Origin: a virus
Taxonomy: Duplodnaviria; Heunggongvirae; Uroviricota; Caudoviricetes
Reading direction: 5' to 3' (one strand)
IMG/VR virus record: IMGVR_UViG_2703718869_000015
Length of the DNA stretch: 13,521 bases
Positions 9,001-12,000 of this stretch are shown one piece after another. The position numbers are program-made. Positions within the stretch are counted from its first letter, which is position 1, and every line of letters starts with the position of its first letter.

Positions 9001-12000
9001 TTGTTGCTGACGACACTATTCTGCCGACAGCGGAGCACCCTGAATTCAAAAAAATCATGATCAACGATGTACTGCCTCCGACACATGACCGTCACTTTTT
9101 TGGCGGTGATGCGACAAGCTTTGAGCAGATTGAAGCGGCAGATATTTTTTCTATTGGCCTGGTGGACAATCTCTCCCTGTTCATTGACGAAATGGCGCAT
9201 CCGTTACAGCCGGTTCGTCTGTCCGGTGATGAACTTCACGGAGAAGATCCATATTACGTCCTGTACGTCACGCCGCGTCAGTGGAATGACTGGTACACCT
9301 CGACGTCCGGTAAGGACTGGAACCAGATGATGGTTCGTGCCGTGAACCGTGCAAAAGGTTTTAATCATCCGCTGTTCAAAGGTGAATGTGCGATGTGGCG
9401 CAATATCCTGGTTCGTAAGTATGCGGGTATGCCGATCCGTTTCTATCAGGGGTCAAAGGTTCTGGTATCAGAGAATAACCTGACGGCAACCACGAAAGAG
9501 GTCGCTGCTGCAACCAATATTGACCGCGCCATGTTACTGGGGGCTCAGGCGCTGGCAAATGCTTACGGTCAGAAGGCGGGCGGTCACTTCAACATGGTTG
9601 AGAAGAAAACGGATATGGATAACCGTACTGAGATAGCAATCAGCTGGATCAACGGTCTGAAAAAAATCCGTTTCCCCGAGAAGAGCGGCAAGATGCAGGA
9701 TCACGGCGTGATTGCCGTTGATACAGCAGTGAAGCTCTGATTTTTTCCTTTCCCTATGCCGGGTTTTCGCCCGGCTTTTTCAGGAGTCATTAATTATGGC
9801 AAAGACTATCCTTGCCCCGTCACTGAGTGAACGGGTCTATACGGGTACGCACGGTAATGAGTCGGTGGCAGAAGGCGTATTTACGGTGAATGCTGCGGAA
9901 GCGGACAGTGTTATTCATCTTCTCTCACTGCCAGTGGGCATCCGTATCAACTCACTCCAACTGGTTTCAACGGGTGGTCTGGGTACTGCAACCGTCAGCA
10001 TTAAGTCCGGTGAGCATGCTCTCATCGATAACAGCGAAGCTGTTTCTGCAAAATTTGCCAGATATGTGCCAGTGGAGCCGTACACCACACAGCGTGACGG
10101 GGAGCTGGTTACTGTCACCATTAAGACTGCCGCTGCAACCGGCACCCTGAATGTTCTGCTGCGTTATACCGTGGTGGGATACTGATTAAAACCTTCCTGC
10201 CCGCGTCATGCGGGCTTTTTATCCGGGGAATTATATGAGTGAGAAAATTGCCGTTGTCTATATCGGCCCAAAACCCGTGAAAAAGGACACCATTACCGGA
10301 AGTCGCACGCTGTTCCCACGTCTTGAGCCGGTGCATGTTGACAGCGCGATGGCCTGGCAACTGCTGGGGTTTCCGGATGTCTGGGTTCGTCATGAAGAGC
10401 TTGATGATGTTCTGAAAAAGCAACAACAGAATGAGCAGTTGCGGCAGGCACAGCAGGCGCAGGAAAGAGTGCTTGCTGCGCTGGCAGAAGCGGAGAACAG
10501 TTTTGTTGTTTCTGTTAACGGGCAGGAGGTGGATTTAAGTAAGCTCACCTCAGCACGGCTGGCGACGCTGTGTGAGGCAGAAGAGCTGGATATTCACAAA
10601 GACCCGAAAGAAACGGCTGAGGCATTCCGTATCCGGGTGCGTGAGGCATTTCGCCGTCGTGTTGCGGAGACTGAACAGTATGGCGGAACTGAGTGATTTT
10701 TTACCGTATGTCCGTCGTCATATCAGCGGTCCACTGAACATTATGATGACGGATGCTCTGTCAATGGCTGCCGTGGCATTCAGCCGCCAGTCGTTGGTGT
10801 GCCGTCGGGAGGTTACTGTTGTACCAGTAGCAGGAAAAGAAATCGTGCTTCCGTATGACAAAGATGATGAGGAGTGCGTTCATATCATCCGTATCTCTGA
10901 CGATAATCATGAGCTTTTTGTCGGTCGGGATGTGGATATCAGCTCCGGACGCTCCCTGCGATTTGCCTGTTCTCCCGGTGAGGTGAGCGTGCTTTATGCC
11001 GTCGCTCCGAAAGCCGGACGCAGCCAGATACCGGATGAACTCCTCACATGGCCTGAAGAAGTGGCTGCGGGGGCACTTGAGCGGTTGTTCATGCAGACTG
11101 GTGTTTCATGGTCAGATCCGTTACGCGCACAGTATTTTTCTGTGCAGTTTTCTGAGGGGATCCGTCGGGCATATCGTCATACACTGGCGACAAGCCCGTA
11201 CTCTTCATACCGCAACCCTGTACGCAGGCAGAGGTTTTTCTGATGACGACGATTACAGAAATCATCGGACGTGTGAATACACAACTGGTTGACCCGATGA
11301 TGGTTCGCTGGCCCCTGCAGGAATTGTGCGATTATTACAATGATGCTGTGAGGGCAGTGATTCTGGCGAGACCGGATGCTGGCGCAAGCCTGGAAACAAT
11401 AAGTTGTGTTCCTGGCGCCCGTCAGGTTTTGCCCGATGGTGTAATACAACTTCTTGACGTGATATGCCTCAGTGACGGTAGTGCAGTCAGACCATTATCC
11501 CGGGAGGTGCTGGATGCGCAGTATCCTGAGTGGCCCACAATGAAGGGTATTCCTGAATGTTTTATCAGCAACGACCTGTCCCCGCGCGTATTCTGGCTGT
11601 TTCCTGCTCCTGACAAAGAGATAAGTATTGATGCAGTGGTAAGCCGGATACCGGAGGCAGTGTATGTTCTGACGCAGGACGATGATACGCCAGTTCCACT
11701 GGAAGAGGCTTATGTTAACCCACTGGTGGAGTGGATGTTGTTTCGCGCTTTCAGTAAGGATGCTGCCGGTGGCGCAGAATCGGGGCTGGCTGCGCAGCAT
11801 TATCAGAGTTTTGTTGAGCAACTTGGGATCAAACAGGGGGCAGACAGTGCATTGTCTGCCCGTAAAAAAGTGTTTAACGGAGGTGGAGTGTGAGTGTTGT
11901 TGTTTCGGGGACGCTGAAATCTCCTGATGGTGAGGCGATATCAGGAGCAAATATTACCCTGACGGCGCTGACAGTTTCACCGGATGCGCTCAGCGGCACC

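Follow-up and report, generated by a model that had tools for sequence, protein, structure and literature searches.

The closest described counterparts of the gene treated here are the cement proteins of phages GP4, Pam1, KHP30, and KHP40. Cryo-electron microscopy (cryo-EM) showed that the head of GP4 contains 540 capsid proteins and 540 gp1 cement proteins, the latter arranged as 180 trimers, and in Pam1 (PDB 7EEL chain H, triangulation number T=7) an extended N-terminal loop of the cement protein runs under the neighboring subunit and contacts the capsid E-loop (PMC9698820). The KHP30 (gp15) and KHP40 (gp16) proteins (PDB 7DN2 and 7DOU; T=9) are trimeric as well. The authors of the GP4 study assigned epsilon15 gp10 and the cement protein of BPP-1 to the same beta-sandwich topology; lambda gpD, phage L Dec, and T4 Soc have different folds (tulip, OB, and beta-tadpole, respectively) (PMC9698820). 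Here, we analyzed a window of 13,521 nucleotides, the whole stretch of DNA taken from IMG/VR virus record IMGVR_UViG_2703718869_000015 (Caudoviricetes), and in it a small gene on the + strand (9796-10185) that codes for a 129-aa protein and directly follows the major capsid protein gene (8526-9740). An earlier note, written from the sequence alone, had recognized this position and proposed either a capsid decoration protein or a moron. We conclude, with a probability of roughly 0.8, that the product of the gene is the capsid cement (decoration) protein of the 933W-type Shiga toxin (Stx) phages, placed on the outer face of the head.

The window comes from a short-tailed Stx-converting phage of the 933W type (Sepvirinae, Traversvirus) and covers its lysis and late region; the small gene is L0117 of 933W and ORF63/ECs1224 of Sp5. 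The 601 bases around it match 186 phage records, with 100% identity to the Stx2a phage Stx2_112991 and 99.8% identity to 933W, VT2-Sakai (Sp5), and others. The gene starts with ATG, stops with TGA, and has its own ribosome-binding site, as the earlier note had seen: direct reading places a Shine-Dalgarno sequence (AGGAG, 9782-9786) 9 nt 5′ of the start codon. The product has a mass of 13.5 kDa and an isoelectric point of 5.9. It had been described as Gly/Thr/Val-rich and probably beta-rich; the second part agrees with the all-beta model presented below, while Val/Thr/Ala-rich fits the composition better (Val 12.4%, Thr 11.6%, Ala 10.9%, Leu 10.1%, Gly 8.5%).

Searches of Pfam and NCBIfam returned no family for the 129-aa protein, and PHROG 486 ("virion structural protein") matched it over its full length (E 4e-61). 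An AlphaFold2 monomer model was built from 14 homologues. The model is all-beta, with a mean predicted local distance difference test (pLDDT) score of 84.6 and a predicted template modeling score of 0.79, and only residues 1-20 were of low confidence (pLDDT 52-59). When this model was submitted to Foldseek, the best four PDB matches were the cement proteins of KHP40, GP4, KHP30, and Pam1, and the structure prediction that the earlier note had suggested as a check on a decoration role thus came out in its favor. As modeled, the protein would be a single-domain beta-sandwich within the size range of the solved GP4 gp1/Pam1/KHP30 members (~125-160 aa), on which it superposes. Its first 20 residues, although modeled poorly, are conserved; the extended loop of the Pam1 protein lies at its N-terminus.

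Sequence comparison led to the same proteins once a family profile was used. A single-sequence search of the PDB found no cement protein and gave only sub-significant matches, to the C-terminal domain of the mannanase Man26A (E 0.06) and to CueO, and a 14-sequence profile yielded nothing useful. An exhaustive hidden Markov model search among 1.84 billion proteins defined a small family of 72 representatives at E <=0.001, nearly all of 125-140 aa. With a profile of 56 family sequences run against all PDB sequences, the top four matches were all phage capsid accessory proteins: the Pam1 cement protein (E 2e-5, near full-length), KHP30 gp15 (E 0.019), the KPP25 "structural protein" 26de_W (E 0.019), and KHP40 gp16 (E 0.085). 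Profile-profile alignment with hhalign was full-length for both the GP4-type proteins (probability 95.7%, E 8.8e-9; gp1, PDB 8H89 chain J, 157 aa, T=9) and the F116-type proteins (probability 97.2%, E 3.8e-11), and PHROG 486, 8455, and 8260 cross-matched through bridging Vibrio and Pseudomonas sequences. KHP30 and KHP40 gave a marginal sequence signal, and a relationship of their capsid proteins was not detected by sequence. The entry 26de_W (PDB 26de/44ny) has the sequence of the gene directly 3′ of the KPP25 capsid gene (3542-3973 of our locus L013), and a solved capsid of this further relative, with its accessory protein, thus appears to exist.

In the hhalign alignment, the near-invariant G20-N21 of the 129-aa protein pairs with G22-D23 of GP4 gp1, whose D23 sits on the trimer axis (PMC9698820). 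The axial Asp of GP4 is thereby an Asn in the Stx-phage protein, and the cation site proposed for GP4 may not exist here. GP4 gp1 is also ~28 residues longer, and the two proteins share 14-18% identity, without pairwise similarity at the BLAST level. The neighboring capsid protein (404 aa) belongs to the HK97-fold family PF13252 and matches PHROG 334 ("major head protein"). Its closest solved relative is the GP4 capsid protein gp2 (8h89_A, E 1.2e-38), and it also matches the Pam1 capsid protein (7eel_A). The gene is ORF62 of Sp5, the product of which was identified as the capsid protein by immuno-electron microscopy (PMC5155283). The product of the small gene is a 13.5-kDa beta-sandwich (jellyroll/immunoglobulin-like) homologous to the trimeric cement proteins of GP4 (gp1), Pam1, and KHP30/40, and it belongs with them by fold, sequence homology, and gene context.

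The gene context is that of a head operon read in one direction, with the following features (ORF, open reading frame):

1060-1593, + strand: lysozyme gene
1872-2396, + strand: Rz gene
2700-3506, + strand: small terminase gene
3487-5193, + strand: large terminase gene
5193-7337, + strand: P22-type portal gene
7355-7378, + strand: hairpin after the portal gene, 9 bp plus T-tract (gap z -3.8; conserved in relatives L017 and L018)
7495-8502, + strand: gene for a 335-aa head-assembly protein (ORF61)
8526-9740, + strand: major capsid protein gene, 404 aa, HK97-fold family PF13252 (Pfam E 1.5e-88)
9758-9780, + strand: intrinsic-terminator-like hairpin in the capsid-to-cement gap, 7 bp (6 G-C), loop of 4, followed by T5
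9782-9786, + strand: Shine-Dalgarno sequence AGGAG (direct reading)
9796-10185, + strand: predicted cement/decoration protein gene, 129 aa, 13.5 kDa (933W L0117, Sp5 ORF63/ECs1224)
10199-10220, + strand: intrinsic-terminator-like hairpin after the predicted cement gene, 7 bp (6 G-C), loop of 3, followed by T5
10235-10696, + strand: 153-aa ORF
10680-11243, + strand: 187-aa ORF (ORF65)
11243-11893, + strand: gene for an SU10-type adaptor, 216 aa (ORF66; PF24175, E 3e-31)
11890 to the window end, + strand: collagen-like tail fiber gene

In GP4, the gp1 gene likewise lies directly 3′ of a capsid gene homologous to that of the Stx phage, and the genomes are of similar size (~60 kb). To see how far this order extends, we examined 13 diverse phages with the same capsid family: two from Vibrio, one from Pseudoalteromonas, four from Pseudomonas (F116, 8P, Itty13, and KPP25 types), Burkholderia DC1, Ralstonia QkW1, Klebsiella LASTA, Pseudanabaena Pam5, and one each from Agrobacterium and Microcystis. 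All 13 carry a gene for 130-160 aa directly 3′ of the capsid gene. The post-capsid gene is annotated as "cement" by the depositors in D14S and Pam5, and the QkW1 copy is essentially GP4 gp1 (E 1e-94). The capsid and small-gene module is also kept in all five closer relatives (two E. coli/Shigella phages, an E. coli prophage, a metagenomic contig, and an Edwardsiella-like contig), which brings the total to 18/18 relatives with the same gene order, in gamma-, beta-, and alpha-proteobacterial and cyanobacterial hosts.

Among the near-identical phages, the two genes also occur together. In the phage collection, 186 records carry the small gene (at least 80% protein identity) and 192 match the capsid protein (at least 90% identity); ~6-7 of these 192 capsid matches are only partial, a number that fits the difference, and 185/188 records cover at least 80% of the region 9200-10800. 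Phages lacking the small gene were considered as a cause of the gap and rejected: the inspected divergent alleles, POCJ13 and PhiR12_3, both carry it, and the gap has the size of the set of partial capsid matches, which were not each inspected individually. Among the records checked, none had an intact capsid gene of this type but lacked the small gene. The presence/absence survey put forward in the earlier note hence gave no sign of variation among phages with the same capsid gene. The small gene is a conserved partner of the capsid gene and was not independently acquired.

Virion data come from a homologous module. In JC1, a Bcep22-like phage with portal, capsid, and head-closure proteins homologous to their 933W counterparts, the gene right after the capsid gene encodes gp49 (155 aa). 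Mass spectrometry of CsCl-purified virions detected this protein, at 50% coverage and with the third-highest score (PMC9144972). Together, fold, profile homology, synteny with the capsid gene, and the proteomics of this homologous module strongly support the decoration protein that the earlier note had offered as one of its two options. Our literature search found no paper joining "cement protein" with Shiga toxin phages and none treating L0117 or ECs1224 functionally; the main text of the phi24B transcriptome paper offered no usable information on the gene.

The terminator-like elements that had been reported on both sides of the gene are present. The first hairpin (GCCGGGTTTTCGCCCGGC, 9758-9775) and the second (GCCCGCGTCATGCGGGC, 10199-10215) each form 7 pairs, 6 of them G-C, and each is followed by TTTTT. 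They rank third and fourth strongest of the 27 terminator-like sites in the window, a number about twice that of shuffled sequences (12.3 ± 2.9), and the capsid-to-cement gap folds with a z of -2.9 (2/200 shuffles fold as well). A third, stronger hairpin of the same class lies after the portal gene (7355-7378, 9 bp, z -3.8), which makes bracketing by hairpins a property of the head operon and not one unique to the 129-aa gene. The strongest terminator-like hairpin of the window is found elsewhere, between the lysozyme and Rz genes (1683-1715, 15 pairs, z -3.5).

We then surveyed 17 related loci for stems that have 7 bp or more and include 5 or more G-C pairs. Such stems were found in the capsid-to-cement gap of 11/17 loci and in the gap between the cement gene and the next gene of 15/17; the two gaps hold 12-14 of them per kb, ~10 times the density in the remainder of these loci (1.4 per kb). 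In close relatives, and in the enteric and some Vibrio members, the position of the hairpin and T-tract is kept while the stem sequences differ, as in the Edwardsiella-like locus (GGCAGGC-TTCG-GCCTGCC, then T7); relatives from high-GC hosts often retain the stem without the T-tract, and the GP4-like phage QkW1 has a GC-rich hairpin on each side of its cement gene, as here. It is mainly this conservation of position despite differing stems that shows both hairpins to be non-random. The cassette-like look of the gene, taken in the earlier note as typical of an acquired moron, therefore goes back to an old feature of the capsid/cement gene pair that has been under selection and is shared across the lineage.

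Both gaps (9745-9785 and 10194-10230) contain a pyrimidine tract 5′ of the hairpin, and in the minimum-energy fold this tract can base-pair with the Shine-Dalgarno sequence that serves the following gene (UCCUU with AGGAG; CCUUCC with GGGGA). These pairings could gate translation or be chance complementarity.

By analogy with the solved homologues, trimers of the 129-aa protein would bind after shell formation over the three-fold and quasi-three-fold junctions and clamp the E-loops, N-arms, and P-domains of capsid subunits from neighboring capsomers. About one copy per capsid protein would be expected, that is ~420 if T=7 and ~540 if T=9; the reported head sizes are ~64 nm for Sp5 (negative stain, PMC5155283) and 74 nm for GP4 (cryo-EM). 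The protein would reinforce the shell without being needed for assembly or infectivity in the laboratory. Rather than bounding a cassette, the flanking hairpins and T-tracts would punctuate the capsid-cement gene pair of the late operon in a conserved manner, acting most likely as partial terminators or attenuators and/or as stabilizers of the 3′ ends of processed mRNA. In this way, the two high-copy shell proteins could be made in large excess over the low-copy head-completion and tail proteins encoded downstream.

Several observations weigh against this interpretation. The homology to cement proteins is visible only at the profile level and not with a single sequence. The fold energy of the second gap is unremarkable by itself (z only -1.6, 13/200 shuffles as good). 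The late operon of lambdoid Stx phages is transcribed by an RNA polymerase that Q renders resistant to terminators, which means that the hairpins may not terminate during lytic growth and that their function is conjecture; Q-modified transcription would favor a role in mRNA stability or in prophage insulation. Direct virion evidence is ambiguous: in CsCl-purified enterohaemorrhagic E. coli podophages near-identical to the window, mass spectrometry gave full-length peptide coverage of a "virion structural protein" (PMC12502783), but the deposited annotation puts that label on two genes and the text does not say which of them is meant.

The remaining objection is genetic. Mondal et al. made individual in-frame deletions in Sp5 (PMC5155283), and the primers of their ORF63 (ECs1224, 129 aa) deletion, which leaves Met-Ala-Lys-Val-Gly-Tyr, match the window exactly. 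Sp5 ΔORF63 still gave plaques and lysogens, and ORF63 is outside the nine genes needed for both, a set that includes ORF62, which encodes the capsid protein, and three further head genes, ORF60, ORF61, and ORF65 (PMC5155283). The viable deletion means that the protein is accessory and that a cementing role is non-essential in the laboratory, and "decoration" may be a more accurate word than "cement". The earlier note had held that absence of the protein from purified virions, together with a gene dispensable for particle stability, would speak against decoration; the Sp5 result concerns plaques and lysogens and does not extend to particle stability. Nor does it refute a decoration role, because accessory decoration proteins are normally dispensable. 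Lambda gpD, T4 Soc, phage L Dec, and the epsilon15 gp10 and BPP-1 proteins follow the same idea: a small protein is placed at the capsomer junctions, on the outer face of an HK97-fold shell. Like Sp5 ORF63, both Soc and Dec can be dispensed with; gpD is essential for full-length genomes. None of these proteins was among the top fold or profile matches.

The non-essential gene also suits a jellyroll virion protein that does not cement the shell as a trimer, such as a monomeric or vertex-specific decoration, the base of a head fiber, or a glycan-binding adhesion module. The weak single-sequence likeness to the Man26A domain mentioned above points the same way, as does the fast evolution of the central, presumably outward-facing part of the protein. 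When 9796-10185 and 8526-9740 were compared against loci L015, L017, L018, L002, and L003, the identities of the cement and capsid proteins were 72 vs 93, 67 vs 96, 42 vs 68, and 28 vs 54%, which places the former near the top of the head module in rate of evolution. The N- and C-terminal segments of the cement protein are conserved around a variable center, the pattern expected of a surface protein whose termini make the binding interface and thus in keeping with a cement protein as well, and the fast divergence is consistent with an exposed surface under diversifying pressure. Since the profile homology to cement proteins is full-length and the residue on the GP4 trimer axis pairs with a near-invariant motif here, we consider a non-cementing virion protein unlikely.

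The cement assignment could also be extended. The hairpin bracket might be a stoichiometry device working under Q antitermination, while in parallel the surface protein doubles as a glycan or mucus adhesin. The hairpins could then set stable 3′ ends of processed capsid and capsid-plus-cement mRNAs and, together with the pyrimidine tracts that pair with the next Shine-Dalgarno sequence, could gate translation of the downstream gene. We hold this combination to be unlikely; if true, the adhesin part would affect the places in the gut at which Stx phages persist and carry out transduction.

The second option of the earlier note, an independently acquired, self-contained moron, possibly expressed from the prophage and of non-structural benefit to host or phage, fared much worse. 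The ribosome-binding site of its own, the hairpins on both sides, the dispensability in Sp5, and the absence of a Pfam or NCBIfam annotation would all suit such a cassette, and a terminator-like hairpin after a non-essential gene is also seen in the lambdoid morons bor and lom, which are promoter-gene-terminator units. The downstream element (10199-10220) does not discriminate, though, as the same element is found in 15/17 relatives. The 55-nt upstream gap is filled by the first hairpin and the ribosome-binding site, and no sigma-70-like site was detected in 9741-9795 by a consensus scan, which would miss a weak or atypical promoter. The G+C content shows no shift (0.52 in the gene, 0.50-0.53 in its neighbors and over 8400-11000 as a whole). 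Unlike the lambdoid morons, the gene shares strand and operon with its neighbors, has no patchy distribution, and is conserved with the capsid gene across host phyla: it is present wherever a full-length capsid gene was checked, its ~186 phage records are as many as carry a full-length capsid gene of this type, and an orthologous small gene fills the same slot in 18/18 relatives. Fold and profile homology indicate cement proteins instead. With promoter, composition, and distribution all contrary, a moron was rejected as very improbable.

How a true moron-like insertion appears in this module can be seen in the Edwardsiella-like locus L015, and it does not resemble the 129-aa gene: the gap that follows the portal gene there (884-1406 of L015) holds a ParE toxin gene and a partner gene, both on the opposite strand. 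The portal-to-ORF61 gap thus looks like a real insertion hotspot for morons. In the window, this gap (7338-7494) is highly structured (minimum free energy ~-58 kcal/mol; hairpins at 7355-7378 and 7380-7410), holds a 41-aa ORF (7380-7505), and is conserved in two relatives.

An assembly factor that leaves before maturation, such as a chaperone or scaffolding accessory of the capsid protein, would suit a gene inside the head-assembly block and the ambiguous virion evidence for the Stx-phage protein, but it is scarcely credible given that ΔORF63 particles are infectious whereas the assembly genes ORF61 and ORF65 are essential, that homologues were found in virions by mass spectrometry and cryo-EM, and that the fold fits external cement proteins and not scaffolds.

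Other genes of the window deserve mention. The essential head genes at 7495-8502 (335 aa) and 10680-11243 (187 aa, ORF65) have no family match. The 335-aa gene occupies the classical scaffold position, and deletion of ORF65 gave spiral capsid structures, and ORF65 was proposed as the scaffold (PMC5155283); either product could be the scaffold. The adaptor-family protein (11243-11893) corresponds to ORF66, the deletion of which was non-essential in the Sp5 study; that study named no head-completion protein, and a dispensable adaptor is odd. Downstream, the G+C content climbs from ~0.52 to 0.62-0.66 at 12400-13400 with a strong purine skew, which matches the collagen-like Gly-X-Y repeats of the tail fiber gene, and this gene continues past the window end.

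A cement protein in 933W-type phages is no new kind of biology; it is a further and unsurprising member of the cement-protein family, useful for annotation. In the short-tailed Stx phages, a group of medical importance, the majority of late genes still bear the annotation "hypothetical", and the assignment of L0117/ORF63 fills one such gap. It would also explain why the gene is tightly conserved beside the capsid gene and yet can be deleted without loss of infectivity. Retained across very different hosts, the hairpins around the capsid/cement pair make a small general point on how late operons may set protein ratios. Being dispensable, exposed on the surface, and present in hundreds of copies, such a protein would lend itself to display or tagging on Stx-phage particles. 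The phenotype predicted for its loss is a lower robustness of the particles to heat, chelators, and acid, which would bear on the environmental persistence of these phages and on the spread of stx genes.

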